DNA from: an uncultured virus (IMG/VR IMGVR_UViG_3300049170_000088)
Taxonomy: Duplodnaviria; Heunggongvirae; Uroviricota; Caudoviricetes
Length of the DNA stretch: 64,000 bases
Reading direction: 5' to 3' (one strand)
IMG/VR virus record: IMGVR_UViG_3300049170_000088
Below the pieces are notes generated by a model. The model saw nothing but the letters and a program-made list of their open reading frames with translations, was not told the origin of the DNA and ran no database searches. The stretch's first letter is position 1, and each line of letters opens with the position of its first letter. Shown here one piece after another: positions 1,592-48,298 of the stretch. A program made the translations under genes and the position numbers.

Positions 1592-1678
1592 ACCCGCTGG
1601 TCCCCGCGCTCGCGGGGATGCGGGCGATGAGAGATCCGCGGAGGCGGCCTCCTGGCAGCCGTGGGAGGCCGCTTCTGC
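1592..1678 (+). ncRNA. candidate small RNA unit 1: solitary type I-E CRISPR-repeat-like sequence plus hairpin
   Basis: CTGGTCCCCGCGCTCGCGGGGATGCGGGC at 1597-1625, then a 15-bp stem 1638-1652/1664-1678 with two G-U pairs on the + strand. Confidence 0.55.
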
Positions 1679-1716
1679 ATGCGCAGGCGGCGCGACGTCA
1701 AGGAGTAGGAGCGGCT

Positions 1717-2175
1717 GTGGCCGACCTGGAGCTGTACGAGCAGAACACCGCGGCGTTCACGGTCGCCGAGCTGCGTGCCCTCTTCGAGTACGAAGCCGCC
1801 GTACTCGGTAGCGGGCTGCACGACTGCTTCGACGCCTTCGGCGTGGAGCACGTGCGCTGGCACGAGAGCGAGTTCGGGCAGGACGCCACCCGCGAGATGC
1901 TGCGGGAGCACGCCAAGATGATCAATACCTGGTATCTGGCTCTGGACGGCCTGCTCGGGGACATCCTCACCTGTACCAGCGAGAGCAGCACGTACAGCAC
2001 GGCGGCCTCCCGCTACCTCAAGGCGGCCTCTGACGAGTACCACCGCACACGGCAGAACTTCGAGCACGTGACCACGCTCTGGTCCCTGGCCCTGCTATCA
2101 GCGGGGGTGGACGCCGACTATCCGCCGGCGACCCGCGACGTGAGCCTGCCCATGCAGGCCCTCACCGACGAGTAG
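1717..2175 (+). CDS. acidic helical hypothetical protein (152 aa)
   Basis: AGGAG RBS at 1707-1711, GTG start at 1717, high GC3; lies between the two repeat-like units. Confidence 0.75.
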   Translation: MADLELYEQNTAAFTVAELRALFEYEAAVLGSGLHDCFDAFGVEHVRWHESEFGQDATREMLREHAKMINTWYLALDGLLGDILTCTSESSTYSTAASRYLKAASDEYHRTRQNFEHVTTLWSLALLSAGVDADYPPATRDVSLPMQALTDE

Positions 2176-2180
2176 CGCGT

Positions 2181-2267
2181 ACCCGCTGCTCCCGCGCGCG
2201 GGGATGCAGGCGATGAGGGCACGCCGGAAGCGGCCTCCCCGTATCCGTGGGAGGCCGCTTCCGGCGT
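2181..2267 (+). ncRNA. candidate small RNA unit 2: degenerate CRISPR-repeat-like sequence plus hairpin
   Basis: CTGCTCCCGCGCGCGGGGATGCAGGC at 2186-2211, then a perfect 19-bp stem 2221-2239/2249-2267; imperfect direct repeat of unit 1. Confidence 0.5.
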
Positions 2268-3305: not shown

Positions 3306-3373
3306 AGCGCCGTCGAGGCAGCGGCGACGGCCAAAGAGCCCGCCATGCTGTCCCGTAATCTCCTGTACCTGTT

Positions 3374-3515
3374 ATCAAAACAGGTGGGAACGGACGTTTA
3401 CCCCATAGGATGCCTGCGCGCGGCGGGGCTCCGTTTCGGGCCCGCACTGTCCGTACGAGGGTCACCACAGGACGGCTTACAGGGAGGTAAGACTTCCGTT
3501 CCCACCTGATTTGAT
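3374..3515. repeat. imperfect ~30-bp inverted repeat pair
   Basis: ATCAAAACAGGTGGGAACGGACGTTTACC (3374-3402) versus the reverse complement of 3486-3515 (ATCAAATCAGGTGGGAACGGAAGTCTTACC). Confidence 0.8.
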
Positions 3516-3530
3516 GGTATGGGTCACCCC

Positions 3531-4469
3531 ATGAACGATGCTTCACCCGACCCCTGGGCGATCCGCGACGCCTGGCTGCACGGCACCTGGACCACCGCCG
3601 ACGGCGCCCTGGTCGCCGGACGCCTGTGGGACGAGGACACCCGCTACCGCTGGGAGCGCTACACCGACCACTGGATCGCCCAGCGCCAGCACACCGGCGA
3701 CCTATGGCAGCCCACCGGCGAAATGATCCGCGACTGGGTCAACCGGCTCATCCGCTTCGACACCGGCCAGCGCCTGGGACCCCGCTCCCGCGCACGGGCC
3801 TGCTCCATCATCCTGTCCTTCTACGAGCACTGCGAACAGGCGCACGGGCTGGGCCCCTTCCGCCTCCCCAAACGCTGGAAGATCATCGGTGTCGTCGAAG
3901 AACGCCAGCCCACCGTCTACCAGCCCTGGGTCACCGACGCCCTTCGAACCGCCGCCGACCAGTTCCAGGGCCTGCCCTCCTCCCCCGGCCGCGGCCCCCA
4001 CATGCAGCACCCCTCCCGCCACCGCCTGGCCTGCTACCTCCTGCTCTCGCGCCTGCGCCCCAAGCAGGCCATCCTGCTCGCCCTGGAAAACCTGGAGCCC
4101 GACCCCGCCGCCAAGATCCTGCGCGCCAAGATCCCCCTCAAGCACCACGCCGACGACAACGCCACCTTCGACGGCACCCTGCCCTGGCCCGTCTGGCGCG
4201 CCGTGGAAGACTTCCTGCCCATCCGCCGGCACAAACTCCCCGCCACCGGCCCCCACTTCGGCCCCGTCCTGACCACCCGCTCCGGCGCCCCCTACACCTG
4301 GGGCAACTTCCGCGAACTCATCCGCCCCGTCGTCGCCTCCCACCCCGACCTCGCCGACATCACCCCGCCCGTACGCCCCGACTGGATCGCCCACAGCCCC
4401 TCACCCTGGACCCACACCCGCGACGAAGACCCCGAACCGGCGCCCGAGCGCCGCCAGGAGCAGACATGA
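3531..4469 (+). CDS. degenerate tyrosine-recombinase-fold protein
   Basis: RHRLACYLLLSRLRPKQAILL is box I-like, PVLTTRSG follows; box II region reads RPDWIAHS, with no HxxR and no downstream Tyr. Confidence 0.55.
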   Translation: MNDASPDPWAIRDAWLHGTWTTADGALVAGRLWDEDTRYRWERYTDHWIAQRQHTGDLWQPTGEMIRDWVNRLIRFDTGQRLGPRSRARACSIILSFYEHCEQAHGLGPFRLPKRWKIIGVVEERQPTVYQPWVTDALRTAADQFQGLPSSPGRGPHMQHPSRHRLACYLLLSRLRPKQAILLALENLEPDPAAKILRAKIPLKHHADDNATFDGTLPWPVWRAVEDFLPIRRHKLPATGPHFGPVLTTRSGAPYTWGNFRELIRPVVASHPDLADITPPVRPDWIAHSPSPWTHTRDEDPEPAPERRQEQT

Positions 4470-4554: not shown

Positions 4555-5145
4555 ATGACGAACCCGATCAAGCCCCCCGTCGGCTCCTACGTCGCCATGG
4601 TGTTCCGGGTGACCGGATACGACCCTGACCGCGGCGAGACCCCCGAGAGTGCCACCATGGCCCGCCTGGAGCACGTTGACCTCGACGGTGAGACCACGGG
4701 CTGGGAGGCCCAGCAGATTGGTCTCTACGACACCACCGCCCAGGTTCTGAGCGAGCCGGGCGGCCTGCGCGCGATTGGCGTGCCTGTGGAGCCATTCCGC
4801 CATGACGGCCAGCGGGGGTTGTACCCGATGAACGACGGCGCGGGGTTCGGTGCGCCCGGAGGAGGAGTCGACGTGAACGACGCGCTTCCGCCGCGCTGCG
4901 CCGCGGAGTGGGGCATCTGCCCCGACCACGGCCCCACCCTGACCTCCAGCGGTGGAGTGTGCTGGTGCCACTGGCCCGGCTGCGGCCGCCGCTGGGACTA
5001 TGACCGGCTCGGTGAGGACTGCGCCGAGCCGGGCACCCACCGGGTCACCGGCACCAACGGCGTCTCCGTCATCTGCTGCTCCGTGCACGGGGCCGAAGCC
5101 ACCCAGGCGCTCGACGGCGCCGTTGTCGAACCCCTGAACCCCTGA
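4555..5145 (+). CDS. hypothetical protein with Cys/His-rich C-terminus
   Basis: GAGGAG RBS, ATG at 4555; CPDHG, CWCHWPGC and CCSVHG motifs. Confidence 0.6.
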   Translation: MTNPIKPPVGSYVAMVFRVTGYDPDRGETPESATMARLEHVDLDGETTGWEAQQIGLYDTTAQVLSEPGGLRAIGVPVEPFRHDGQRGLYPMNDGAGFGAPGGGVDVNDALPPRCAAEWGICPDHGPTLTSSGGVCWCHWPGCGRRWDYDRLGEDCAEPGTHRVTGTNGVSVICCSVHGAEATQALDGAVVEPLNP

Positions 5146-8188: not shown

Positions 8189-8473
8189 ATGTGGTGGTCC
8201 TACGTTCTCGCCCTCGGGGGCGCCGCCGGGTTCTTCATGATGCGCTGCGGCATGTGGCAGGGCTTTGCCTGGTCCACCCTCATGCAGGCCGTCTGGCTCC
8301 TCTACAGCATCGTCACCGGTCAGTGGGGCTTCCTCTTCGGCGTCGCCCTGTACGGAACCATGTCCGTCTGGGGCTGGTACTCCTGGAAGCGCACCGGCGT
8401 GCCCTCCTCGGCCGCCGCCTGCACCTGCCCCTGTGCCTGCGGCGCCCGCGAAGCGGCCGTCTCAGGCCAGTGA
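8189..8473 (+). CDS. PnuC-like small membrane protein
   Basis: Trp-rich three-TM protein (QAVWLLYSIVTGQWGF...WGWYSWKR) resembling phage PnuC-like proteins. Confidence 0.55.
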   Translation: MWWSYVLALGGAAGFFMMRCGMWQGFAWSTLMQAVWLLYSIVTGQWGFLFGVALYGTMSVWGWYSWKRTGVPSSAAACTCPCACGAREAAVSGQ

Positions 8474-9454
8474 CAGCGGCCTGGACCCGTGGTCGCGCAC
8501 CAGCGTCTCCACCGAGCGCACCCACACCCGCAGCTCATCGGACGGGTTCAGCGCGTTGGCCCGCGCACGGGCCGCAGCCGACGCCACCGCCCACTCCTGC
8601 GGCTGCCGCACGAGCCGGTACAGCGCAGAAGACCACTGCTGGTACTGGTCGCGGTCCGCGTACGCGCCGGCGCTGCCCAGGGCCTCGCGCAGGCCCGCGG
8701 TCGGATGGGCGATGACGGGGATGCCGCTGCACATCGCCTCCAGGGCAGCCATGCCGTAGGACTCGTAGTACGAGGGCATCAGCAGCACCCGCGTGCGAGA
8801 CCACACGTCCCGCTTCATGTTCGAGGTCTGCCCAATGACCTGCACATTGGGCGGCAGCCCGGCCACGAGCTGTTCGCCGTAGCCGCCCCGCACCCCCAGG
8901 AACGGCACGTCGGGGAACAGGTGGGCGAGCGCGGAGAAGACGTGCACGCCCTTGTGGGCCGTCAGGTTGACCAGCGTGACCGAGCTGCCCGGCGTCGTCT
9001 CGTGCTCGTGCGGCCACACCGGCGGGTGCACCACGATCCACCGGCCGGTCAGCAGCTTGTGCCAGTCCCGCGCGATCCACTCGGTGTTGAACACCGTCAG
9101 GTCCGGCTGCATCGACAGCACCACACGGTGCTCGTCGAACGTGTTGTGCTGGATGATCACGGAGGGGACGCCGAACTCGCGGGCGGTCTGCACCCCCAGC
9201 GCGGCGTGCGTGTGGTGCGAAATGATCACATCCGGGCGCAGCGCCCGCGTCACCTCGACCACGGAGCGCTTGCGCTCGGAGAACGCGCGGATGCCCCCGT
9301 AGGTCCACTGCTCGGGGGCCTCGCGCATGTCCGTGGTGACCACGGTGACCTCATGCCCGGCGTGCTGCATCGCCTGGAGCATGGTGTGGAGCATCGTCTC
9401 GGAGCCCGCCAGGCGGTAGGGCGGGTAGAAGTGGACCAGGGCGACCACGCGCAT
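8462..9454 (-). CDS. glycosyltransferase, GT4 family (GT-B fold)
   Basis: HFYPP..AGSE N-terminus; LLMPSYYESYGMAALEAMCSGIPVI (EX7E motif). Confidence 0.9.
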   Translation of the reverse strand: MRVVALVHFYPPYRLAGSETMLHTMLQAMQHAGHEVTVVTTDMREAPEQWTYGGIRAFSERKRSVVEVTRALRPDVIISHHTHAALGVQTAREFGVPSVIIQHNTFDEHRVVLSMQPDLTVFNTEWIARDWHKLLTGRWIVVHPPVWPHEHETTPGSSVTLVNLTAHKGVHVFSALAHLFPDVPFLGVRGGYGEQLVAGLPPNVQVIGQTSNMKRDVWSRTRVLLMPSYYESYGMAALEAMCSGIPVIAHPTAGLREALGSAGAYADRDQYQQWSSALYRLVRQPQEWAVASAAARARANALNPSDELRVWVRSVETLVRDHGSRPLSLA

Positions 9455-9484
9455 GCCGGGGCACCTCTCCTTGGGGTATCGGGG

Positions 9485-10408
9485 TCAGGTCAGATCGGCG
9501 AGCGCTTGGGCCATGGCGGTGTGGAAGTGCTGGTTGCGGGCGAGCGCGTGGGCGCGGCCTTCCTTGCCGCGCGCGGTGCGCTCCTTGGCGCTCAGGGCGG
9601 CGGCCTGCTTCACCGCCGCGGCGATGTCGTCGGGCTCCACGCGCTTGCACCGCACGTGCCCGGACATCTCCTCGTCCTGCGCCGGCAGAAGGTAGCCGAA
9701 GTCGGGCTGTACGTGGGCGTTCATGGGGTCGGCGTCGGTCGTGATGACCTGCGCCCCGCACAGCAGGCCCTCCACGATGCCGTGCCCCCAGCCCTCGGCG
9801 CGCGAGGGCATGAGGTGGATGGCGTGGGTGTTCAGCAGCTCGGCGACCTCTTCGCGGTCCACGTGCCCGCGGTGGGTGGCGTTTTCGGGAAGCGTCTGCC
9901 CGGTCCAGGACAGATCCCAGTCCGCGGTGATGACCAGCGGCGGCAGCTCGGCGCCGTGCCGGTGCCAGGCCTCGACCACCGCGGCGGTGCCCTTGCCGGT
10001 GGAGCGCCCGGCCATGTGCAGCACGGCCTTGGCCTTGCGCCGCTTGGGCTGGGAGCGGTCGGGGGTGGCGAAGCCGGTGAAGATGAGGCGGCGCACGTCC
10101 AGGTGGTTGGCGATCTGTGCCATGGTCTCGGACTTGGCCCACACCTGGTCGAAGCGCTCGATCTGCTTGGCGTCGGCTTCGCTCAGGCAGTCAGGGTTGG
10201 GCACGAACACCGACGCCGCGGCGTGCGGTAGCAGGACGTCGCTGGTGGTCTCCAGGAAGATCGCGACGTCGCAGGCGTCCATCGTGCCCTCGCGGAAGTC
10301 GACCACCTGCACGTCGTGGCCCAGCGCCGTACAGGCGTCGCTCATGACCTTCAGGTCGACGCTCAGGCCGGAGTCGTTGTCCTTGGAGACGAGGGTGATC
10401 CGGGCCAT
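9485..10408 (-). CDS. glycosyltransferase (GT-B, GT4-like)
   Basis: HLMPSRAEGWGHGIVEGLLCGAQVITT (EX7E motif). Confidence 0.85.
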   Translation of the reverse strand: MARITLVSKDNDSGLSVDLKVMSDACTALGHDVQVVDFREGTMDACDVAIFLETTSDVLLPHAAASVFVPNPDCLSEADAKQIERFDQVWAKSETMAQIANHLDVRRLIFTGFATPDRSQPKRRKAKAVLHMAGRSTGKGTAAVVEAWHRHGAELPPLVITADWDLSWTGQTLPENATHRGHVDREEVAELLNTHAIHLMPSRAEGWGHGIVEGLLCGAQVITTDADPMNAHVQPDFGYLLPAQDEEMSGHVRCKRVEPDDIAAAVKQAAALSAKERTARGKEGRAHALARNQHFHTAMAQALADLT

Positions 10409-10977
10409 CAGGCGGTGACCTCCTGGATCAGGACGTCACGGCCGCCCCAGGGGGCCTCTCGCCGGTCGACGCGGTAGTTCACGCCGTTCTCGATCAGGTG
10501 CGGGATGAGCTTGAGGCCCTTGCGCACCCACTGGTCGTCCTGGTCCATGTCGTCGGCCAGGATCAGGCCGCCGGGCCGGATCAGCTCCAGCGCGAAGGCG
10601 TACTCCTTCATCACCAGGTCGGGATCGTTGTCCGAGTCCAGGAAGATGACGTCGAACGTCTGGCCCTCGCTGATCAGGCGCGGCATGACGTCCAGGCTGG
10701 AGCCGGTGATCAGCTCGGCGTGCTGGTCCACGCCGTGGCGCTCCAGGACCAGGCGCGCGTTGCTGACGTCCAGGTCGATGCCGACCACCCGGCCGCCGTG
10801 CCGGGCGGCGTGCTCGGCGAAGAACAGGCTGGACCAGCCGTCGGCCGGGCGGGCGGCGTCTGCGGTTTCCCGGATCGTGCCGACTTCAAGGACGTCAAGG
10901 GCCTTCTTGCCGGTGCGCTCCTGGAGTCCGGCCAGCTCGCGCTGAAGGATCACCTCAAGAGTCTTCATGCGCGCCAT
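10408..10977 (-). CDS. class I SAM-dependent methyltransferase (Methyltransf_24-like)
   Basis: VLEVGT, VVGIDLD, FDVIFLDS, IRPGGLILADD; translationally coupled to the glycosyltransferase. Confidence 0.85.
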   Translation of the reverse strand: MARMKTLEVILQRELAGLQERTGKKALDVLEVGTIRETADAARPADGWSSLFFAEHAARHGGRVVGIDLDVSNARLVLERHGVDQHAELITGSSLDVMPRLISEGQTFDVIFLDSDNDPDLVMKEYAFALELIRPGGLILADDMDQDDQWVRKGLKLIPHLIENGVNYRVDRREAPWGGRDVLIQEVTA

Positions 10978-14762: not shown

Positions 14763-15809
14763 CTATCGGCCGTGCCGTGACGGCTGAGCTGCAAAGATCA
14801 CCTCGTTGCCCGTGACGGGTACCTCGGCTGAACCCCCAGTGCGTGCGGACGGGGTCCGCACGCCCGCCACCGTGTCCAGGATCGTCTGCCACCGATGCCC
14901 ATAAGTGTGGTGCTCCCTCACGTGCTCGAACCCGGCCCGACGGATCTTCTCCCGCTCTGCGTCGTGCATCACGTAGTAGTCGATCAGCTCGTGCAGCTCG
15001 TCGAAGTCGCCGTAGGTGTAGAACGCCAGATGGCGGCCGTCGGTGAAGTGCTCCTCCAGGCCCGGCACATACGGGTGGATCAGGAACCCGCCACGGCCGA
15101 TCGTCTCGTAGACGCGGTCCGACCAGTAGCCCGTGTAGTCGAATCCGGGGCACAGCGAGTCCCCGATAATGACCTTGGTGTCCGCGTAGAAGCGGTTCAG
15201 CCCTTCCCCGAACACCGGGCCCTGCGGGCTCTCCGCGCCGCGGTGCGCGAACCCGTCCCCGTAGGTCTCCTCCAGCCAGTCCACCAGTACCGGACGATAC
15301 GGCCACTCCGCGGGGTAGTCCCTGCGCCCGCCCACAAAGCCCACGTCATGCAGGTACCCCTCCGGCCGCGGATCAGCCATCACGCACTCCCCGCGGTACA
15401 CGCCGGCGGGAAGGTAGTGCCCCTGCACCGGCGTCTCCCGGTTCAGGTACTCCACCAGGCCGGGGTCCACCGAGAAGAAGTGGTCGACGTGCCGGTACAC
15501 CGGCTCTCGCCGCACCTGCTCCGCGCGCTGAAGCCCGGTCCACAGATCCAGGTGGTAGCTCACCGAGGGCACCCCGGCCGCGCGCAGCTCGCCGAGAACC
15601 TGCTCCATGCTCAAAGCGCCCGGCGTCACCCCGCCCGGCGTATGCACCCACACCAGCACCTCCGCCGCCCGGCCGCGCTTCAGGATCTCCTCGGACGCGG
15701 CCCCGAGCTGGAGCCGGTCCACCTCATGCCCCAGATCCTCCAGCGACTGAGCCCAATAGGTCTCGCTCGTCCAGAAAGCTGCGAAGTTGCCGAGGAAGAC
15801 GATGCGCAC
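14763..15809 (-). CDS. glycosyltransferase, CgeB/Glyco_trans_1_2-like
   Basis: VRIVFLGN start; DVGFVG; YWSDRVYETIGRGGFL; HVREHHTYGHRW. Confidence 0.85.
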   Translation of the reverse strand: MRIVFLGNFAAFWTSETYWAQSLEDLGHEVDRLQLGAASEEILKRGRAAEVLVWVHTPGGVTPGALSMEQVLGELRAAGVPSVSYHLDLWTGLQRAEQVRREPVYRHVDHFFSVDPGLVEYLNRETPVQGHYLPAGVYRGECVMADPRPEGYLHDVGFVGGRRDYPAEWPYRPVLVDWLEETYGDGFAHRGAESPQGPVFGEGLNRFYADTKVIIGDSLCPGFDYTGYWSDRVYETIGRGGFLIHPYVPGLEEHFTDGRHLAFYTYGDFDELHELIDYYVMHDAEREKIRRAGFEHVREHHTYGHRWQTILDTVAGVRTPSARTGGSAEVPVTGNEVIFAAQPSRHGR

Positions 15810-16038
15810 GCCGGTTCCTTCCCTGCGCCGGGAGGCGCTGACCGGTAGGCCAGCGCTCATAGCAGACACAGTGTCATATACCGGGCATTCGGCAGCGGAA
15901 CGGCAGTGACTGGACTCGCCTTGGCGTCACGGGACGAAAACAGCAGGTCACCGAGGGTGCGCCGAATGGAAGAACGCCCCGTCAGGTCTGCGGACCGGAC
16001 GGGGCGTACCAGTGCCTCACCCGCTACCGTGACGGGCT

Positions 16039-16968
16039 ATGCGCGAAACACGTGGAGATACCGTACCCGTCCCGCCCCTCAGCGACGACCTTGCTTTCCT
16101 GGACATCGTCACCGAATGGGACATCAGCACCCCCTACCACGAGTGGAAGCCCTCCATCGTGGTCCCGCCCACCTTCCTGGCCGGTGCCGCCATCGGCCGC
16201 GTCATCGCCGTCTGCAACCAGAAGGGCGGCGCAGGCAAGACCACTACCAGCCTGGAGCTGGCCATGGCGCTCGTCGCCCGCGGACTGCGTGTGCGCATCA
16301 TCGACGCCGACAAGCAGGATGCCTCCCTGTCCGCATGGTTGCGCTACTTCCTTCCCGAAGGCGTCACGATCGCCGACGCACCCAACCTGCTGCACTTGTT
16401 CTTCGACCAGGAAGTGGGCCTGGCCGACGTCACCTACGCCACCCCCTACACGGGCCTGACCTTCGTACCCTCCTTCCCCGACCTGGACGACGTGGAAGCC
16501 AAGCGCCCCACCGGCTCCGAAACCGCTCTCCAGTTCCACCTGTCCCAGGACGACGACGCCGACGTCACGATCATCGACTGCGGCCCGGCACTGGGCCCCC
16601 TGACCGTCTCCGCCCTGGTCGCCGCCGACGACGTCCTCATCCCCGTGCAGGGCGACAGCGGCCTGGACGTCAAGGGCGCCGCCGCCCTGAACCGCTCGAT
16701 CACCACGGTACGCAAGCGGCTCAACCCCAAGCTCCGTGTCGCCGGCGTGGTCCTCACCGACTTCGAGAAGTCCAGCCTGGCGCGGCAGATCGGCCACATC
16801 TTCGCCCAGAAGTACCCCGAAGCCGTCCTGCTTCCCGTGCGCACCTCCGTACGCCTGGGTGAATCCCAGCTCGCCCGCACTCCCTTGAGGGTCTTCGCGC
16901 CGGGCGCCACCACGGTCCTGGACTACGACCGCGGCGCACAGCTCCTGTTGCAGAGCGGAGGCGCCTGA
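16039..16968 (+). CDS. parA: ParA/Soj partition ATPase
   Basis: Deviant Walker A NQKGGAGKTT; IIDADKQ; IIDCGP. Confidence 0.93.
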   Translation: MRETRGDTVPVPPLSDDLAFLDIVTEWDISTPYHEWKPSIVVPPTFLAGAAIGRVIAVCNQKGGAGKTTTSLELAMALVARGLRVRIIDADKQDASLSAWLRYFLPEGVTIADAPNLLHLFFDQEVGLADVTYATPYTGLTFVPSFPDLDDVEAKRPTGSETALQFHLSQDDDADVTIIDCGPALGPLTVSALVAADDVLIPVQGDSGLDVKGAAALNRSITTVRKRLNPKLRVAGVVLTDFEKSSLARQIGHIFAQKYPEAVLLPVRTSVRLGESQLARTPLRVFAPGATTVLDYDRGAQLLLQSGGA

Positions 16969-18993: not shown

Positions 18994-19482
18994 TCAGCTC
19001 CAGCGCTGGGGGTTACAGGTGGTCAGGTAGCGCTTGAGGAAGGCGAATCCGGCCGTCCACTCACCGCGTGCCAGGCGGCTGCCGGGCGAGTCGATCCGGG
19101 CCAACGTGGGGAACATGCGCCGTACCCGCAGCTCCTTGTCGCGGGCGTGCACCAGGGCCTCTTCGGGGAGTATCCCGATGTCCTGGAGGAGATCGTGGCC
19201 GCGACGCACATGCCGGTGCATCTCCGCGGCCTCGGCCACATGCAGGCGCCGCAGTGGGACGCCGGTGCGCACAGGGGTGAACTGCGGTACCACGCCGTCG
19301 TGTTCGAGCTGGTCAAGCCACCCGTTGTAGCGCGGGTGCGCGGAGGGCCGCAGCCCGGCGGCGTTGCGGGACAGGTGCTGGCGGGCCCGCTTGGCGAGGG
19401 GCTGCACGGTCGCCCCGATGTAGCGGACGTCGGCGGGCGCGCGCGGGTCGGTGACGGCGTAGACGACGCCGGTGCGGTTCAC
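18994..19482 (-). CDS. GIY-YIG nuclease domain protein
   Basis: GVVYAVTDPR...VRYIGAT...KRARQH and a later AE; GTGA overlap with the recombinase stop. Confidence 0.75.
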   Translation of the reverse strand: MNRTGVVYAVTDPRAPADVRYIGATVQPLAKRARQHLSRNAAGLRPSAHPRYNGWLDQLEHDGVVPQFTPVRTGVPLRRLHVAEAAEMHRHVRRGHDLLQDIGILPEEALVHARDKELRVRRMFPTLARIDSPGSRLARGEWTAGFAFLKRYLTTCNPQRWS

Positions 19483-20531
19483 AGCCCGATTCCGATCAGG
19501 GCGTTGTCCTCCCAGCGGTCGCCCTCTTCGATGTACTCCTCCAACGTGGGCGAGCCGGGCCGGTGGCCGGACTGGCGGGCGATGGTCTTGCGGTCGATGC
19601 CCTTGCGGGCGGCTTCGGTGATGACGCCGCGGCGGGGGCTGTGGCCCGTGTGCCGCACGCCGCACTTGGCGTCCTCACTGCACTTGGTGATCAAGGCCCC
19701 GACCGACTTCGGGTGCAGTCCGCCGGCGAGTGGCTTCAGCGTGCGCCAGTGCAGCGCCTTGAAGAGGAAGTCGTCCGGGTCGTCCAGACCCGCGGCCTCC
19801 ACGTAGACCAGGAAGGAACGCACCGGGCACGTGGAGGGCCGCTGCCCGTAGGGCACCGCGACTTCTCGCGTGGACGTCTTGGAGACGCGGACCGTGACCA
19901 CCAGTCCGTTCTCCTCTACGCGTACGTCCCGCAGGCGCAGGTTCGCCATCTCCGCCTCGCGACCGGCCACGGCGAACTGGAGCAGCACCAGCGACCTGTT
20001 GCGCCACCCGTACAGGTTCTCCGGCTGTGCCTCGACGATCTTCTTCAGGTGCGGGATGAGCAGGGCGGGCGCCTTGCCGACACCGCGGCGCTCGCCCTTT
20101 TCCTCCATCTCCTCCTTGAGGCGCTTGAGGAGTTCGCGGGCGCGCAGGGCGATGTCCTGGTCGAGCTTGAGGCCGTAGCGGTCGCGGCCGGTGACCACTA
20201 CACCCGCAAGGCGCCGGTCGATCGTGTTGGGCGAGGTGAACATGCCGGGCTTGTAGCCGGGCTGGGTCCACAGCCACTCCACGAATGCGGTGAGCGTTCC
20301 GACCGTGATGGCGGTGAACGGGATCTGGAGCTGGAGACAGAACCCCTGCCACACACGCCAGTCGCTCTCGTAGGCCTTCTTGGTGTTCTTGGGCTTCTTG
20401 TCCGCAACGTACTTTGCGGATGCTTCATCCAACTCGGCCAGTCGAGCCAAAAGGTCTTCATCGAACTCATCGGGCATCACGGCTGCTTCGAGCGGAACGG
20501 CCGTAAGCTCCTCATTGACCACAATGGCCAT
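19479..20531 (-). CDS. tyrosine recombinase (integrase/resolvase)
   Basis: Full catalytic set: AGREAE (R), VSKT (K), GHSPRRG (HxxR), SGH, EEY; start codon uncertain. Confidence 0.9.
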   Translation of the reverse strand: MAIVVNEELTAVPLEAAVMPDEFDEDLLARLAELDEASAKYVADKKPKNTKKAYESDWRVWQGFCLQLQIPFTAITVGTLTAFVEWLWTQPGYKPGMFTSPNTIDRRLAGVVVTGRDRYGLKLDQDIALRARELLKRLKEEMEEKGERRGVGKAPALLIPHLKKIVEAQPENLYGWRNRSLVLLQFAVAGREAEMANLRLRDVRVEENGLVVTVRVSKTSTREVAVPYGQRPSTCPVRSFLVYVEAAGLDDPDDFLFKALHWRTLKPLAGGLHPKSVGALITKCSEDAKCGVRHTGHSPRRGVITEAARKGIDRKTIARQSGHRPGSPTLEEYIEEGDRWEDNALIGIGL

Positions 20532-20664
20532 TTCGCCGTCCGTTTTGAGAGCAAGATAAGTCGACATACCTTTAGTCCAATTCACCCGATTAGTCGCGAA
20601 GTTCACCGCCAATATGTGAGCTTATGTTGCCCCAGGCCCCCCGCGCTACAGGCCGCGCCACTAG

Positions 20665-26544: not shown

Positions 26545-29500
26545 CTATGTCTCGGGCGGGTTGAGGACGGCGGTCACGCCCTTGTTCACGGCGGTGATGT
26601 ACTGGTTGAAGGCGGCTGTACGGTTCGCGGGGTTCTGGATGGACGCGAGGCTGAGGTCGCCGCCTGCGTAGAAGGCCTGGCGCTGCGTGCGGGAGATCTC
26701 GATCTGGCAGCCGGCGCCGAACTCGCACTTGTTGCAGATGTTGTCCCGGTCCGTTCCGGTCAGCCCGGACGGGGCGTCCTTGCACAGGAACCCGGCTGCG
26801 GTCAGCTCGGCGCGGATGGCGTCGCGCAGCTCGGTGTCCAGCCCTCCCACGTAGGTGAGGGCGGTGCCCGGCTCCCGGTCCGCGTGCCCGTGCCAGGACA
26901 CGATCCGCGGTGCAGAGGCCACGTGCGCGACTCCGGTGGGCTCGTCGAAGCGGGTGGAGGTGATGTGCAGCGACGCGTTGTTCGAGGGCTTGCGGCCGGA
27001 GAACGTGTAGAAGCCGTATCCGCCGTTCTGCGCCGCCTGGTCGGCGAGCTGTTCGGGCGGGGCTTCCATGCCGCCGCCGTGGATGGCGATGTGGCTCAGC
27101 CCGTTCGCCACTGGCCGCTCGATGATGAAGTAGTCCCGGTCCTTGACGTTGACCAGGGCGCCGGTGCCCGGGACCAGGTCGGTGGCCAGATCCTCGAAGT
27201 TGAAGTAGGTGTCATTGCCGAGGTCTTCGCAGGGCACCGGGTAGGGGCCGCCGCAGGCCCGGATGCTGGAGTCCTGGATGTCCTGGACGCATACCTCGTA
27301 GGAGCCCGGCTGGTACTCGCGCGGGCTGACGACCTCGCCGGTCGCCGCGGCGTGCGTCGTGGGGTTGGGGTCGTCCGGAATCCAGTAGATCTTGACGCCG
27401 CGGTTGTTCGCGTTGACGTACGAGACCTTGATCTTGTTGGCGTCCGGCGGGCACCCCTCGTACTTGATGCTGACGCCCTTGGCGGCCGGGGTGCCGGTAC
27501 AGGGGATCTGGGTGACGCCGGTCGCCACGGCGGTGCCGCCGTCGGCGTCCTTGACGATGATCTGTACGGGCTGGGATGCCCGGTGCGCCGGGGTGGCGTA
27601 CACGTTCGCCTTGCGGCGCCCGGTGGCGTCGGTGGAGAAGCCCCACGCCAGGCGGGGGCCTTCCGGGCTGGGCAGCACGAAGATCGACTCGGACTCTCGC
27701 CAAGTCAGGTTCGGGTACTGGTCGTTGGGGATGTTCGTGATGACGTTGCCGGTCGCCCCACGGATGTCGGTGACCGTCAAGCGGGCGTTGTTGGCGTCCC
27801 CGGCCCCGTAGAAGTGGTACGCGTAGTTCCCGTACAGCGTCCAGCACTGGAAGTTCGGGATCGACGTGTCGTTGACGGCGCAGTCGAAGACCGGGGAGCC
27901 GAACTGGCGCGCCAGGAAGTCCGACAGCTTCCAGACGGTGATGTGGTACTGGTTGTCCTGGCTGCGGTGGCGGACCGCGATGCGGTCGTGGTCCAGGTCC
28001 AGGCACGGGTTGACATGGTCGGAGTCGGGGCGCGGGTCGTAGCGCTCGATGCTCGGGTCGTTGGCCTGGAGGATCTTCCCGGCGGTGTAGGGGAAGCGGG
28101 CGACCTGGGTGCCGTATCCGTTGGAGCCGATGGCGGTGGGCGGCGGGTCGATGGCGGTGAAGAGGTTGACCGTGCTCCCCGAGTGCTGCACGCCGAGGCC
28201 CGAGCCGTGGTCCCAGCCGCGCGAGGGGCCGGGAAGGACACCGACCAGGTACATGTGGGAGATGGGCTCGGTGCCGTTGGGGGCGACGCGGTTGATGGCG
28301 AGGTGGCCGTTGGCCGCGCGCACGGCGTGGTCGATAGCGGCGTTCTCGCCGGCGAGCTGGCGTCCGCCGTTGATGACCTGGCTGAAGTAGACGTCGCCGT
28401 TGGTGCGGTCGACGTCGGCCTGCTGGTGCACGGTGGTCTGCGAGAGCGTGACCGTGCCGCCCAGGATCGGATCGGCCTTGCGGGCGACCTGGAGCGGGTC
28501 GCCCTCCTTCCAGTAGGTGTGGGCCGGGATCTGGCCGCTCTGGTAGGTCTGCACGTCGCCGTCGCCCCAGTCCACGGTGATCGGGTAGCGGGTTCCGGCG
28601 GCGATGTCCAAGGTGACCTTGTGGTCGTCGGCGGGGTCGCAGATGGCCGTGGCGTCGGGGCCGGACTGGCAGGGCACGTTGACGGTGTCGGCGCCGGTGC
28701 GGCCGTCCTCGTCGGGGTCGGTTGCGGTGATGACGAAGCGGCCGTCCAGACCGGCCGGGTACAGCACGGTCGTGACGTCCACCCCGTCGCCCTGGTTGGT
28801 GGCGTCGTCGATGGTGGCGCCGCTGGTGGCGCTGATGACGACCGAGCCGTGGCCGCGGTTGTCGGCGGTGACCTTGAAGCGGCGGCCGGTGCCGTCGGTG
28901 GGGTCGCAGACCGCGGCCACCGCGATCAGTTCGGCGCCGCCGCCGGTGCACACGGGGGTCTGCACGGAGCGGCAGCCGCCGTCCACGGCCTCGGAGCACA
29001 CCATGATCAGGAAGGAGCGGCCCAGGCCGTCAGGGTAGGCGTGGGTGAGGGTGCCGGGCCGTACGCCGGTCTGGAGCGGGGAGCCGTCGCCCCAGTCGAC
29101 GGAGACGGTGCCGCGGTCGTTGTTGAAGACGCTGATGGTGGCGGTGCAGCTCTGGTTCCAGGAGACGAAGGTGACGTCGGGGCGCAGGCCTCCGGCCACG
29201 TAGGTGCAGCGTCCGCAGAAGTTGGGGATGTCGTTGCGGCAGACCTTGATGGGGAAGCGGCCGTCGGTGGTGAAGGTGTGGCGCAGGCGGGCCGTGCAGT
29301 CCTCACCGACGGCGATGTACTGGTACTGGTCGGTGCCTGCGTCCTCGCCCCAGTCGACGCGCAGTCCGTACTTGCCGATCGGGGATTCGCCGGGGCAGGC
29401 GCAGGCCACGGTGTCGGGGTCCGGGGTGCCGCACCAGGCCTGGGTGGGCAGCGTGACGTCGACCAGGACACTGCGGCCGGTGTCGTCGGTGGGGTCCTGG

Positions 29501-30531
29501 AGGCAGCGGATGACCGGCTCGTCGGGGGGCAGGGGCACGGTCAGGGTGCGGTTGGTGCAGATCTGCGGGAACGCCTTGTCGCAGACGGTGAGTTCGTAGG
29601 TGGCCGGGGCGGCGTTGGGGTTGCCGCATCCGGCGCCGTAGCTGTGCTGGCCGATCTGTCCGTCGCGCAGCTCGGTTTCGGCGCCGTCGCCCCAGCGCAC
29701 GCGGACGGGGCCGTAGCCGCGGTTGTCGGCCTGGACGGTGACGAGGCATCCGGTGGTGTTGGAGCCGCGTTTGACGAGGACTTCGGGCGGCTCGGGGATG
29801 CCGCCGTCCACCGGCTGGATACCGCAGTCGGGTTCGGGAGGCGGGAAGGTCGTCACGAACTGCACGAAGTCGGCGTTCGCGCGGACGGGGCAGGCCAGCG
29901 GGGCAGGGCGCTGGCCGTCCATCAGCACGTTGTAGGGGCCGCGGCCCCAGCCGGAGGAGCGTCGGGTGGTGCCGGAGAAGGAGAAGGTGATGGGCCCGTT
30001 GGCGATGGTCCACTGGCCGATCTGGACGCCGGAGATGCAGGGGAAGAGGAGGTAGCCGTATTCGGCGCCGCCCTGGGACTGCTTGCAGGCGGCGCCGGCG
30101 CCGGAGTAGACGTTCATCCACACCTCCAGTGCGAAGCCGGAGGAGTCGCAGCCGCCGCCGGAGACCGCGGAGAAGCCGATGATCATGCCGGTGGAGTCGC
30201 GGATGGGGCACCAGTTGGGCTTCATGATCAGGACGAGGGAGGGGTCCAGGGCGCACAGTTCCAGGGAGACGCCGTAGTTGGAAGGGGTCGGGCAGGTCAG
30301 GGTGGTGAAGCAGACCTGTCCGTCGGCCTTGGTGATGGGGTTCTGGTCGCCCTGGTCACCGCCTTCGTCTTCGCCGGGTGAGACGACGATGTTGACGAAG
30401 GCATCAGTGGTGACCTGCCCGCTTCCGCCGGGGTTTTGGGGGTCCTCGAAGAGGGGGCGGCAGCACCCGTCCAGCTTGGTGGCGCGCAGCACAGCGGCAC
30501 CGCTGAAGCTGGGGCAGATCACCTGAGCCAT
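26545..30531 (-). CDS. tail tube paralog 2 fused to PKD repeats, TagC/RBP-like propeller and poly-gamma-glutamate hydrolase
   Basis: N-terminal ~520 aa highly similar to 42378-44126; repeated DWGDG..HTY; propeller-like segment; C-terminal HGGGME, HITSTRFDEP, SWHG, QIEIS. Confidence 0.8.
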   Translation of the reverse strand: MAQVICPSFSGAAVLRATKLDGCCRPLFEDPQNPGGSGQVTTDAFVNIVVSPGEDEGGDQGDQNPITKADGQVCFTTLTCPTPSNYGVSLELCALDPSLVLIMKPNWCPIRDSTGMIIGFSAVSGGGCDSSGFALEVWMNVYSGAGAACKQSQGGAEYGYLLFPCISGVQIGQWTIANGPITFSFSGTTRRSSGWGRGPYNVLMDGQRPAPLACPVRANADFVQFVTTFPPPEPDCGIQPVDGGIPEPPEVLVKRGSNTTGCLVTVQADNRGYGPVRVRWGDGAETELRDGQIGQHSYGAGCGNPNAAPATYELTVCDKAFPQICTNRTLTVPLPPDEPVIRCLQDPTDDTGRSVLVDVTLPTQAWCGTPDPDTVACACPGESPIGKYGLRVDWGEDAGTDQYQYIAVGEDCTARLRHTFTTDGRFPIKVCRNDIPNFCGRCTYVAGGLRPDVTFVSWNQSCTATISVFNNDRGTVSVDWGDGSPLQTGVRPGTLTHAYPDGLGRSFLIMVCSEAVDGGCRSVQTPVCTGGGAELIAVAAVCDPTDGTGRRFKVTADNRGHGSVVISATSGATIDDATNQGDGVDVTTVLYPAGLDGRFVITATDPDEDGRTGADTVNVPCQSGPDATAICDPADDHKVTLDIAAGTRYPITVDWGDGDVQTYQSGQIPAHTYWKEGDPLQVARKADPILGGTVTLSQTTVHQQADVDRTNGDVYFSQVINGGRQLAGENAAIDHAVRAANGHLAINRVAPNGTEPISHMYLVGVLPGPSRGWDHGSGLGVQHSGSTVNLFTAIDPPPTAIGSNGYGTQVARFPYTAGKILQANDPSIERYDPRPDSDHVNPCLDLDHDRIAVRHRSQDNQYHITVWKLSDFLARQFGSPVFDCAVNDTSIPNFQCWTLYGNYAYHFYGAGDANNARLTVTDIRGATGNVITNIPNDQYPNLTWRESESIFVLPSPEGPRLAWGFSTDATGRRKANVYATPAHRASQPVQIIVKDADGGTAVATGVTQIPCTGTPAAKGVSIKYEGCPPDANKIKVSYVNANNRGVKIYWIPDDPNPTTHAAATGEVVSPREYQPGSYEVCVQDIQDSSIRACGGPYPVPCEDLGNDTYFNFEDLATDLVPGTGALVNVKDRDYFIIERPVANGLSHIAIHGGGMEAPPEQLADQAAQNGGYGFYTFSGRKPSNNASLHITSTRFDEPTGVAHVASAPRIVSWHGHADREPGTALTYVGGLDTELRDAIRAELTAAGFLCKDAPSGLTGTDRDNICNKCEFGAGCQIEISRTQRQAFYAGGDLSLASIQNPANRTAAFNQYITAVNKGVTAVLNPPET

Positions 30532-36429: not shown

Positions 36430-38766
36430 CTACGCCGCGAGGGCAGCGGCCAGGGCGCGCTGCATCCGGTGGACGATGATGTCGTTCTGGCTCGCCGCGG
36501 TGTGGATGTGCACGGCCACATCCCGCGGTGCCACCCGGCCGCCGGAGGCCGCGCCGGAGCGCACCATCAGCTCCATCAGACCGGCCTTCTCGGCGAGTTC
36601 GGCGGCCCGCTGCGGCCGGGTCAGCGGGATGACCACCTCGGGACCGGCCTCGCCCACCAGTGCCTTGGTGGGGCCCGCGATGATTCCGCCGGAGGCCAGG
36701 TTCACGCCGGGGATCTTGTTGAGGGCGCCCTTGCCGAAGTCCTTGATGGCGCCGCCGATGTCCTTCAGCTTGCCCAGCGCCTTCCCGGCCCACTCGAACA
36801 GGGTCTTCAGCACGCCGACGACACCGGAGATGGCGCCCTTGACGAGTTCGAGGGCTCTCTTGACCGCCGGGGTCTCCTTGGCCCACCTGCCGAAGGCAGT
36901 CACGGCCTTGGCCACCGCGGAAATGATCTTGAGAACCTGGGTGATGACCTGGACGGCCACGCCGATCAGTTTCGTCAGCACGGAGACCAGTGGCGGCAAG
37001 GCCGTGATCGCCAGCTCCATGATCTTGATCACGAGCGGGCCGACCGCCCCCCACAGGTCGACGAAGGTCGTCGCCAACTGGGCGATCAGCGGGGCGAGTT
37101 GGGTGATCGCGTCAGCCAGGGCCTGGCCCAAGATCTCGATCAGGTCGGTCAGCGGCCCCTCGACCATCGGCGTCAGAATTGCGGCAACTTGGGCAAAAGC
37201 CTCAATAACGGGCTGAAAGGCAGGAACTAGGGCATCTAGGACCTTCGACAGTTGCTCGCCGAGGAGCGTGAGCAGTTGCTCGATCAGCGGCATGAACGGC
37301 TCCAGCAGAGCCGTAATGATCTTGAGGGCTTCGCCGAAGGCTTCGAGCAGTACCCCGCCGATCTCGCCGAGCCCCTTGGCCAGGGGCTCCAGCACCTCAA
37401 GCAGGCCGGTGATCGCTTCCGTGGCGACGTGCGTCCCGTCAGCCATCGGCTTGAACAGCTCGCCGAAAAGCCCGAGCAGGCCTCCCACCAGCTCCAGGAT
37501 GTCGCCGAAGGCGCGCATCCCGTTGGACATCGCCTCGAAGGCGTCAGAGCCCTCGCCGCCCGCCGAGGCGTTCTTCAGGAACTCGCCGAACTTCTCGCCG
37601 GCGGCGCCGATCGCCTCGCCCATCCGCTCCCAGAGCGGGAGCGTGTTCGCCACGACGGCGGCGATGCCCTCCATCGCCGGGCCGACCGCATCACCGAAAC
37701 CCTTCGCGACCGCCTCAAGGATCTTGAAGGAGTCCGCAACGAGCTGGATGCCCTCCTGGGTGCGGAAGAACTTCTCGAACTCGGTGATGATCCGGTTGAC
37801 GGCCTCGAACGCGCCGTTGAGCGCGGCCGTGCCGACCGGCGTGTTCAGCGCGTCATTGATCGCATCCTTCAGACCGCCGAAGGACTCCTTGAGTTCGTCC
37901 CCTCTCTTCTTCCAGAGGATGAAGGCCGCAGCAGCAGCAGCCGCGGCGCCGGGGATGGCGTAGATCAGGCCCGCGAGCGGGGCCAGGAGGACCACCAGGG
38001 CCGCGATCGCGTAGCCGAGCGCGGCCGACTGGCGCCCCACGATGCCGCCGAGCGTGGCGAATGCGGACTGAATGCGCCCGAGCTGACGGACCGTGCGGTT
38101 CGCGTTGCGGGTGATGTCCCCGTCTCCGCCCCCGTCTCCGCCGCTGCGGCGTCCGCCGGTGGCCGGTCCACGGCCGTTGCCGCAGGGGTTGCCGCCGATG
38201 GAGACACACCGCACCCGCACCGTCGCCGGCGGCATGCCTCGGGTGAGGGCGTTGACCTGGGCGCGGAACCCTGCCGCCAGCGGGCGAAGGCGGATGCCCG
38301 CCTCCATGCCCCGCGTGAGGGCGTTGACCTTGGTGCGGAACCCGGTGGCGACGGGGTTGAGGCGGATGTTCGCCTCTATGCCGCTGGTGAGGGCATTGAC
38401 CTTCTGCTTGAACCCGGCCGCGATGGGGTTCAGGCGGATGTTGGCCTCGAATCCGCCCGTGAGGGTGTTGACCTTCTGGCGGAATCCGGTCGCCAGGGGG
38501 TTGAGGCGGATGTTCGCCTCCATGCCCCTGGTGAGGGCATTGACCTTCTGCTTGAACCCGGCGGCCAGCGGGTTCAGGCGGATGTTCGCGGTCATGCCGC
38601 GGGTCATGTTGTTGACCGCGGTGCGAAAGCCGGTCATGTCCGGCCTCACGCGGACCTCGGCGTCGCCGACGGAGGCGATGGCCGCTTCCACTTCCTCCCG
38701 GAAGCGCGACGTGTCCGCGACGATGCGGACATCCGCCTCGCCGATCGAACCCGCCGGAGTCGTCAC
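36430..38766 (-). CDS. tape measure protein
   Basis: IGEADVRIVADT N-terminus; long amphipathic repeats; C-terminal LASGGII.GPT.ALVGEAGPEVVIPL. Confidence 0.9.
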   Translation of the reverse strand: MTTPAGSIGEADVRIVADTSRFREEVEAAIASVGDAEVRVRPDMTGFRTAVNNMTRGMTANIRLNPLAAGFKQKVNALTRGMEANIRLNPLATGFRQKVNTLTGGFEANIRLNPIAAGFKQKVNALTSGIEANIRLNPVATGFRTKVNALTRGMEAGIRLRPLAAGFRAQVNALTRGMPPATVRVRCVSIGGNPCGNGRGPATGGRRSGGDGGGDGDITRNANRTVRQLGRIQSAFATLGGIVGRQSAALGYAIAALVVLLAPLAGLIYAIPGAAAAAAAAFILWKKRGDELKESFGGLKDAINDALNTPVGTAALNGAFEAVNRIITEFEKFFRTQEGIQLVADSFKILEAVAKGFGDAVGPAMEGIAAVVANTLPLWERMGEAIGAAGEKFGEFLKNASAGGEGSDAFEAMSNGMRAFGDILELVGGLLGLFGELFKPMADGTHVATEAITGLLEVLEPLAKGLGEIGGVLLEAFGEALKIITALLEPFMPLIEQLLTLLGEQLSKVLDALVPAFQPVIEAFAQVAAILTPMVEGPLTDLIEILGQALADAITQLAPLIAQLATTFVDLWGAVGPLVIKIMELAITALPPLVSVLTKLIGVAVQVITQVLKIISAVAKAVTAFGRWAKETPAVKRALELVKGAISGVVGVLKTLFEWAGKALGKLKDIGGAIKDFGKGALNKIPGVNLASGGIIAGPTKALVGEAGPEVVIPLTRPQRAAELAEKAGLMELMVRSGAASGGRVAPRDVAVHIHTAASQNDIIVHRMQRALAAALAA
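38234..38660 (-). repeat. 72-bp (24-aa) tandem repeat in the tape measure N-terminus, five clear units plus one degenerate
   Basis: EANIRLNPxAxGFxxKVNALTxGM; GAGGG..TTGACCT recurs at 38245, 38317, 38389, 38461 and 38533. Confidence 0.9.
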
Positions 38767-48216: not shown

Positions 48217-48230
48217 CGACTTTTGGTGCT

Positions 48231-48298
48231 CCCGGCGCAGACACCAGTCAGAGCGCGAAGTGCTGGGGACCGTGGCCCCCGGCGCAGACACCAGTCAG
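48231..48298. repeat. 21-bp perfect direct repeat upstream of the major capsid gene
   Basis: CCCGGCGCAGACACCAGTCAG at 48231-48251 and 48278-48298. Confidence 0.9.

Follow-up and report, generated by a model that had tools for sequence, protein, structure and literature searches.

A type I-E CRISPR repeat look-alike and its decayed copy flank a small gene on a putative Streptomyces phage element: a candidate RNA decoy for Cas6e

We analysed a stretch of 64,000 nucleotides (hereafter the window) from an uncultured virus of the Caudoviricetes (IMG/VR record IMGVR_UViG_3300049170_000088), which originates from a soil-metagenome assembly, where it lies on a contig of 67,577 bases, and has a G+C content of 69%. 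An earlier note, made from the letters alone, had drawn attention to two solitary sequences between positions 1,592 and 2,267 that resemble type I-E CRISPR repeats, each followed by a hairpin, and had proposed that they act as mimics of CRISPR RNA (crRNA) aimed at the type I-E Cascade complex of the host. The locus consists of two copies of one module, units 1 and 2, placed on either side of an open reading frame (ORF), ORF152, as follows:

1583-1588, + strand: TATGGT, a hexamer that may be a -10-like element, ending 8 nt before the repeat-like core
1589-1680, + strand: unit 1, with a 5' flank, the hairpin that resembles a type I-E repeat, GATGAG as a linker, and hairpin 2 (defined by direct repeats, alignment and fold)
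1597-1625, + strand: 29-nt repeat-like core of unit 1, CTGGT-CCCCGC-GCTC-GCGGGG-ATGCGGGC
1638-1678, + strand: hairpin 2 of unit 1 (inverted repeat I9, which folds), 15-17 bp including G-U pairs
1717-2175, + strand: ORF152, a 152-aa acidic protein, with a GTG start codon, AAGGAG upstream and a G+C content at third codon positions (GC3) of 0.92
2178-2267, + strand: unit 2, in which the module is decayed, within the 3' untranslated region of ORF152 (defined by direct repeats, alignment and fold)
2186-2211, + strand: shortened repeat-like core of unit 2, 26 nt, CTGCT CC---CGC GCGC GGGG ATGCAGGC
2221-2267, + strand: hairpin 2 of unit 2 (inverted repeat I2), a perfect 19-bp stem between ORF152 and the convergent ORF126

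Units 1 and 2 are direct repeats of about 85 nt with 83% identity, spaced 586 nt apart. They were recovered as repeat family D1 (69 nt, two copies at 1607-1675 and 2193-2261, 83% identity) and, for the 16-nt 5' part, as family D5 (1589-1604 and 2178-2193, 88%); the window contains exactly two occurrences of the conserved 21-mer CGCGGGGATGCRGGCGATGAG, against 0.02 expected, and none of 100 shuffles reached two. The letters that follow the repeat core are common to both units, and in each of them GATGAG is followed, after about 9 nt, by a long hairpin. Both units are intergenic, between ORFs with coding GC3 values, and share the sense orientation of ORF152; unit 1 is placed where a winged-helix gene (- strand) and ORF152 (+ strand) diverge, and unit 2 where ORF152 and ORF126 converge. 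No Cas domain was detected in the 51 ORFs of the window compared with Pfam or in the 18 analysed with PADLOC, and the repeat covariance model described below found no further CRISPR repeat in the 64 kb. These results bear out the earlier description of the locus: two imperfect direct repeats, a 29-nt layout in unit 1 with a shortened copy in unit 2, GATGAG and a long stem in both, TATGGT at 1583-1588, and a window with neither cas genes nor an array. A small peptide read through the units was considered and rejected, because in the sole long frame most of the differences that separate the units are non-synonymous.

Natural repeats were gathered by a BLAST search of the unit against plasmids and 401 Streptomyces genomes; among the type I-E arrays found in this way, those of L005 and L007 have cas genes alongside. 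From the array loci we took 311 repeats, 59 of them distinct, which were aligned and built into a covariance model (R1), and the whole window was searched with it on both strands with filters off. Unit 1 was the only significant match in the 64 kb, on the + strand (28.2 bits, E = 2.6e-6); the next-best match had an E-value of 0.09, and the minus strand of the unit 1 site scored 13.6 bits. Under the same model, natural repeats reach 42-49 bits when intact and 13-40 bits when decayed at the ends of arrays. Unit 1 is thus a look-alike of a type I-E repeat in the sense orientation. The alignment of 1597-1625 to Streptomyces repeats, suggested in the earlier note as a check, gave 23 of 24 identical positions over the first 24 nt and 1-2 of 5 over the last five. 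Stem arms CCCCGC and GCGGGG around a 4-nt loop, which form invariant columns (6-11 and 16-21) in the 59 distinct repeats, are both present in unit 1. Its loop, GCTC, is found in 10 of the 59, and its 5' flank, CTGGT, in two, both from arrays of one genome (G283). The flank of unit 2, CTGCT, is the commonest of the 13 natural variants (35/59), and in both units (CTGGT...ATG and CTGCT...ATG) the trinucleotide ATG directly follows the stem, as it does in natural repeats.

In DNA of 69% G+C, an ordinary palindrome could come to resemble a repeat by chance. The pattern CCCCGC-N4-GCGGGG with one mismatch is indeed as frequent in the window as expected (4 found, 3.16 expected), and hairpins of the form CCCCGCGC..GCGGGGATGC occur in many unrelated contigs. 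Because the bare stem pattern is not rare, the signal rests on the full repeat and not on the GC hairpin alone. However, the E-value under the model comes with a strand asymmetry, the flanks CTGGT and CTGCT are two of the 13 natural variants, and the ATG after the stem also matches, which makes a chance resemblance hardly credible. On this comparison of sequences, unit 1 is the descendant of a Streptomyces type I-E repeat that has kept the Cas6e-type stem-loop but not the handle.

The handle of natural repeats reads ATG[G/C/A]NCC[C/G], ending in N-C-C-[C/G] with C at position 28 in at least 90%, whereas that of unit 1 reads ATGCGGGC; the endings are CGGGC in unit 1 and CAGGC in unit 2. The 8-nt handle that had been described for unit 1 therefore holds as a layout and fails as a sequence, GG at positions 27-28 being found in none of the 59 natural repeats. 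Relative to the natural Streptomyces repeats (L005, L006, L007 and L138-L146), unit 1 shares the 29-nt layout, the invariant arms, the 4-nt loop, the CTG[C/G]T flank and the ATG, and it differs in not being arrayed, in its handle, in its score (28.2 against 42-49 bits) and in flanks that are predicted to pair. A metagenome array, L244, has older repeats that end in ATGCGGGC, so a handle of the unit 1 type is possible in nature. L244 and L245 lie on one metagenome contig with two I-E-like arrays, whose repeat reads GGTTCCCCCGCGCGCGCGGGGATGCACC; at a distance from the conserved flank, the repeats of the second array end in ATGCGGGC, ATGCGGGG or ATGCGGCG, a run of variants that shares the unusual handle start of unit 1. 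A scan of IMG/VR for the stem pattern returned 141 matches, 30 of them solitary by a crude rule, and some had altered or palindromically extended handles, so handle variants of this kind are not unusual. Solitary I-E-type stems with non-canonical handles were seen on the viral contigs of L151, L189, L209, L161, L163, L167 and L223, with one family extending the palindrome (GTCATCCCCGCGCAGGCGGGGATGAC) and another running into ...GGGGATGGAGATGACCATGACC. The hairpins of L151, L189 and L209 (GTCATCCCCGCGCAGGCGGGGATGAC) resemble unit 1 in the stem, the helix-extending handle letters, the solitary state and the viral location, but they have other flanks and hosts and lack the shared linker and the second hairpin.

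Camara-Wilpert et al. 2023 (PMC10651486) described solitary repeat units (SRUs) of viruses and plasmids that act as RNA anti-CRISPRs (Racrs), and credited the first list of SRUs to Faure et al. 2019. That paper counts 2,103 viral and 90 plasmid SRUs; about 234 rows of its supplement are typed I-E (468 occurrences in two columns), and two I-E Racrs, RacrIE1 and RacrIE2, are described as active in Pseudomonas. The SRUFinder cut-off given there is at least 41.1 bits at no less than 90% coverage. Unit 1 matched real arrays with 43.7 bits over 26 of 29 nt (90%) at 96% identity, and a second match reached 49.1 bits over 29 nt at 97%, including 5 nt of spacer; the comparison of bits is approximate, as BLAST settings and repeat library differ from those of SRUFinder. 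As in the published definition of an SRU, no other full or partial repeat was found within 100 bp on the same strand in the R1 search, and the units are intergenic on a virus or plasmid. The 61-nt period of an array with spacers of about 32 nt is absent, there being only the two copies. No Rfam family matched at gathering scores in the window, and no CRISPR family appeared at E <= 10 around the units; this blank is uninformative, because real Streptomyces arrays, searched in the same way, likewise matched no CRISPR family.

The 11 nt before unit 1 (GGTCGGACCCG, 1586-1596) are identical to the end of a spacer in the array of the FR-008 plasmid (L006 3990-4000), and 8 nt before it (CGGACCCG) to a spacer end in an S. 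globisporus array. These matches may reflect selection bias among the top BLAST matches, or they may be the trace of a source array fragment. The FR-008 match also bears on a reading in which the units serve as stretches of homology that recombine with host or plasmid arrays, for integration or for exchange of the ORF152 cassette. Direct repeats do bracket a single gene that other elements carry without units, and integration of SRUs into arrays has been proposed (PMC10651486, introduction). Only about 24 nt of homology would be available, however; the duplicated unit runs 60 nt past the repeat into a hairpin that is foreign to arrays and has no Streptomyces match, and the 11-nt match was drawn from top BLAST matches among very many repeats, so that selection bias can explain it. 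We regard such a role as quite improbable.

The earlier claim of two mimics was overstated. In unit 2 a 3-nt deletion in the 5' arm breaks the stem, so that the arms of a type I-E repeat are no longer intact, and R1 gave it 11.0 bits (E = 0.71) against 28.2 for unit 1. Unit 2 is a decayed copy of the module and not a second good mimic.

The predicted fold of unit 1 has a free energy of -60.3 kcal/mol on the + strand (z -3.6) and -50.8 on the - strand, and is thus 9.5 kcal/mol more stable on the former, in agreement with the claim that the G-U pairs of its stem form on that strand only; for unit 2 the strands are about equal (-62.6 kcal/mol on +, z -4.0, and -64.7 on -). The arms of hairpin 2 are 15 nt long and 87% complementary in unit 1 (1638-1652 / 1664-1678), and 19 nt long and 100% complementary in unit 2 (2221-2239 / 2249-2267). 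Both units retain every one of the 16 pairs: a single pair differs on both sides (G-C to C-G), three differ on one side by way of G-U, and none is broken. Hairpin 2 is conserved as an RNA structure, and the changes preserve the structure only in RNA of the + strand. This conservation, together with the 9.5 kcal/mol difference in the predicted folds of unit 1, supports the idea that the module is an RNA element on the + strand, which is the strand of ORF152 and of the repeat sense. Hairpin 2 of unit 1 resembles a terminator but lacks a U tract, and a consensus scan called no terminator there. In the predicted fold of unit 1 the handle letters GCGGG (1620-1624) pair with CCCGC (1593-1597) in the 5' flank. 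A flank-handle pairing (CUGC with GCAG) is also predicted for unit 2, where the inner stem has only 4 bp. Natural repeats do not show flank pairing of this kind. The position equivalent to the Cas6e cut would lie between G1617 and A1618.

Retention of hairpin 2 without the repeat-like hairpin is what the earlier note had said would speak against its proposal, and this is found in the paralogous unit 2, with its 16 pairs kept. The module may be a relic without any CRISPR role: an array fragment acquired by recombination, then retained and duplicated only within a two-hairpin module for termination, insulation or RNA stability around a solitary 'moron' gene. Hairpin 2 is the best-kept part of both units, and unit 2 lies between convergent genes, the expected place for a bidirectional terminator. 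The I-E stem is decayed in unit 2, unit 1 scores like decayed terminal repeats, and the letters that stand in place of its handle make the helix longer. In addition, another scar of mobile DNA, a Tn3-family inverted-repeat relic (2269-2310), lies nearby; similar extended-stem palindromes, CCCCGCGC..GCGGGGATG, are generic hairpins in other contigs; and CRISPR arrays are common on Streptomyces plasmids. On the other hand, unit 1 has kept its stem and 5' flank intact (23/24) although the units have diverged by 17%, a terminator at unit 1 would be oddly placed, in a divergent promoter region and directly upstream of the gene that it would silence, and the module is in the sense orientation of the repeat, with the same features that define validated Racrs. 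We regard such a relic, kept for its hairpins, as the main rival of the decoy favoured below and as only slightly less likely.

The bracketed ORF152 is a genuine gene. The protein has a pI of 4.57 and is modelled as a helical bundle (pLDDT 81.1, pTM 0.73). It belongs to no family in Pfam, PHROG, NCBIfam or PADLOC; Foldseek returned no PDB fold match at E <= 0.001, and the best hit of a PDB sequence search had an E-value of 0.51. The candidacy of ORF152 as a known anti-CRISPR (Acr) protein received no support from the family, PDB sequence and Foldseek searches and was dropped; the acidic, helical-bundle character of the model neither supports nor excludes an Acr role. The start codon lies only 36 nt beyond hairpin 2 of unit 1, so that transcription of ORF152 probably runs through this unit. 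We found 35 homologues, and all those with an organism name come from Streptomyces; the three closest relatives, encoded on short Logan contigs, are 75-80% identical. At the four loci L001, L002, L003 and L016 the homologues lie inside operons of small genes and are followed by unrelated hairpins or by the next gene. Successive small genes in these operons are joined by a near-identical stop-RBS-start junction (RBS, ribosome-binding site; GAGCAGTGAGGACCACGACCATG and variants), seen at 4981-5003 in L001, at 3980-4003 and 4453-4476 in L016, and at about 4727-4746 and 4940-4960 in L002; it looks like a cassette-like boundary motif.

The position of ORF152 between the units invites a further reading, in which Cas6e binds or cuts both ends of its mRNA and thereby couples the stability or translation of a possible Acr to the presence of a type I-E system. 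Both units are in the sense orientation of ORF152, transcription probably passes through unit 1, and the protein is small and acidic with no known fold matched. As a precedent, racr candidates are reported to cluster with acr genes, and RacrIC1 and AcrIC5 to share one transcript (PMC10651486). However, the stem of unit 2 is degraded, the homologues do without units at the four loci examined, and neither a PDB fold match nor a family marks ORF152 as an Acr. This coupling is unlikely. A long shot of the same kind is that ORF152 stands as a gene in place of a spacer, its 5' and 3' untranslated regions being read by Cas6e so that the phage would sense a type I-E system and an anti-defence message would be released or stabilised only in hosts with such a system. 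On this reading the re-paired handle of unit 1, with the cleavage site within a predicted 14-bp helix, would make a slowly cut or uncut trap for Cas6e; if true, RNA anti-CRISPRs would have a further, new way of acting, unlike the Cas6-Cas7 filament of the published RacrIF1.

Taken together, unit 1 derives from a type I-E repeat, lies in the sense orientation and stands alone on a mobile element. The explanation that we favour, tentatively and at somewhat less than an even chance, is that unit 1 would be a Racr-type RNA decoy for the Cas6e of the host and that unit 2 would be mainly a terminator. Unit 1 would be transcribed on the + strand, either as a short RNA ended by hairpin 2 or as the 5' leader of the ORF152 mRNA. 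Its stem-loop, with the arms of natural repeats and the natural loop GCTC, would be bound by host Cas6e, and Cas6e, perhaps with Cascade subunits, would thereby be drawn off the real pre-crRNA, as in a Racr-type RNA anti-CRISPR. Unit 2 would be an older or decayed paralogue whose main remaining role is that of a terminator hairpin for ORF152. Transcription of unit 1, binding or cleavage by Cas6e and an effect on immunity are inferred. Selection for such a decoy is plausible, because Cas6e (PF08798) was found in 175 of the 401 Streptomyces genomes searched.

The comparison with SRUs and Racrs points in the same direction. Like them, unit 1 is a single, intergenic repeat look-alike on a phage or plasmid without cas genes, in the sense orientation and next to a small gene without an assigned function; the arms of its stem-loop are identical to those of repeats of the likely host genus, and the I-E subtype has validated Racrs. 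Unlike them, two diverged copies here bracket one gene, the last five handle nucleotides of unit 1 have given way to letters for which pairing with the 5' flank is predicted, the duplicated module includes a long second hairpin, and a 5' leader for Cas7 binding may be missing. The proposal of a crRNA mimic directed at the I-E Cascade thus stands in part: unit 1, solitary, intergenic, in sense and on a mobile element, has the profile of a Racr candidate, whereas unit 2 and the handle do not fit it. For RacrIF1, inhibition is reported to reside in the RNA upstream of the Cas6f cut plus the stem-loop, and a mutant with the 5' handle reverse-complemented is reported to retain inhibition (PMC10651486).

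Several observations weigh against a decoy. The score of unit 1 falls in the range of decayed terminal repeats and not in that of intact ones, its alignment with R1 deletes four handle positions, and any G at positions 27-28, where unit 1 has GG, was seen in only one of the 59 natural repeats. The predicted helix of about 14 bp, with a 2-nt bulge, encloses the would-be cleavage site, and this pairing of handle and flank could block processing by Cas6e. Transcription beginning immediately behind TATGGT would leave no 5' leader to which Cas7 could bind, unlike the case of RacrIF1; the hexamer itself is a lead only, because a sigma-70 consensus scan gave no promoter-like site in 1400-2900. Unit 2 ranks ninth in the R1 list, its core folded alone gives -13.6 kcal/mol (z -0.33), and between the units the terminator-like hairpin 2 is better kept than the repeat hairpin. 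None of the four examined loci of ORF152 homologues has a repeat-like unit. Homologous units were sought with exact words, by which diverged copies would be missed: viral contigs gave no match, genome contigs gave 117 stretches, all of them chance matches to coding DNA without an upstream hairpin, and metagenome contigs gave 20 stretches with the stem and ATGCNGGC, none of them homologous (unrelated hairpins and one array, that of L244/L245).

BLAST searches with the unit gave a similar picture. With two candidates scored per genome, 7 of the 401 Streptomyces genomes matched, of which four have real arrays (G283, G304, G335 and G392) and three chance matches in coding DNA (G097, G205 and G303). 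The best 40 of 72 phage records showed partial matches, mostly inside annotated genes of unrelated phages. Four plasmid matches that seemed solitary (H36, H42, H46 and H48) were rejected, all four being arrays.

The earlier note had also allowed for a crRNA-like regulator. On such a reading, Cascade would be guided by the letters that follow the handle and would repress the promoters of cas or toxin genes. Viral regulators of this kind (Cracr, or crRNA-like RNA, crlRNA) are described for type I-E systems (Liu et al., bioRxiv 10.1101/2024.10.29.618823); as presented there, they are phage-borne RNA genes that derive from repeats, are directed at I-E and other systems and often lie beside acr genes, and in this they resemble unit 1. 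In unit 1 the handle and the 3' base of hairpin 2 are 53 nt apart, which equals a spacer of 32 nt plus 21 nt of repeat. However, a Cracr is described as a mini-array of repeat, short guide and repeat with a typical handle and a guide against a cas or toxin promoter, and none of this is seen in the module. There is no second repeat within 100 nt, the non-canonical handle (0/59) differs from that of CracrIE1, which retains the typical 8-nt form, and the would-be guide folds on itself in a stem of 15-19 bp. The length of 53 nt is not kept, being 56 nt in unit 2. Against one cas3/casA promoter region (L005 7300-7600), a weak test, the would-be guide of unit 1 shares no word of at least 8 nt, and the longest word shared by that of unit 2 is 9 nt. 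With no second repeat, no canonical handle and no free guide, this alternative is poorly supported and very unlikely.

Beyond the decoy candidate and the gene that it precedes, the following features were assigned in the window, those from the ParA-type ATPase onward by Pfam/PHROG match and coding GC3:

1217-1492, - strand: divergent neighbour, a 91-aa basic winged-helix protein with a weak GntR-type match
2338-2718, - strand: ORF126, convergent with ORF152
16039-16968: ParA-type ATPase
19479-20612: tyrosine integrase
36430-38766: tape measure protein
45772-48291: major head protein
49217-51508 and 51539-54076: portal proteins
elsewhere in the window: head-tail adaptor and tail proteins

The proteins nearest the units have relatives only on Streptomyces plasmids and on one IMG/VR contig. 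These relatives, together with the phage structural, ParA and integrase genes, indicate that the element is a temperate phage or phage-plasmid, most likely with Streptomyces as its host genus. Identical 151-nt pieces at 1339-1489 and 1582-1732 were found in a second soil run, which shows presence only. No spacer matched the window among 156 distinct spacers from the array loci, a tiny sample; the best match had 16 contiguous nucleotides. The winged-helix protein has a pI of 10.37 and matches Pfam GntR at an E-value of 2.8e-4, below the curated cut-off, and it has no relative among viral contigs. The element also carries three glycosyltransferase genes, one methyltransferase gene and a gene for a 1,328-aa tail-type protein with a C-terminal poly-gamma-glutamate hydrolase domain, jointly in 8462-10977, 14763-15869 and 26545-30531.

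Directly 3' of unit 2, positions 2269-2310 hold the relic of a Tn3-family terminal inverted repeat, present as a single copy in the window and without an inverted partner. This stretch matches un-annotated DNA of 31 Streptomyces plasmids, and at L253 and L254 the match stops about 80-90 nt before a DUF4158 gene (the N-terminus of a Tn3 transposase). A region of 62 nt, reaching about 10 nt outside the repeat, is 95% identical to an S. cellulosae plasmid, where it lies beside an integrase gene. A tRNA or att site at 2262-2321 was considered and rejected, as no tRNA was found and the stretch corresponds to this relic. Further along, a 24-nt inverted repeat (3374-3397 / 3492-3515, 92% complementary, 94 nt apart) sits in a gap of lower G+C content just upstream of ORF316 (3519-4469) and could be a regulatory or attachment region; 3367-4431 of the window is 85% identical to a plasmid of S. 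violaceusniger Tu 4113.

Solitary repeat units are already known as candidate RNA anti-CRISPRs; what is new here is a type I-E example most likely of Streptomyces, a genus for which we found none described. The SRU table of PMC10651486, as available, holds no match to four strings of the window and one reverse complement; the name Streptomyces was not found in the available text and supplements of that paper; and among the matches listed in a literature search on Streptomyces, anti-CRISPR, I-E and phage no title was on this topic. Some of the anatomy is unusual, namely the paired copy, the re-paired handle and the attached second hairpin. If the units are only a relic, they document the traffic of array fragments into phages. 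Type I-E is a common CRISPR type in Streptomyces, as the Cas6e count above shows, and if unit 1 is a working Racr, it would extend RNA anti-CRISPRs to the actinomycetes, would offer a small tool for switching off endogenous type I-E systems in antibiotic-producing strains, and would single out ORF152 and its relatives on plasmids as candidates for a part in anti-defence.

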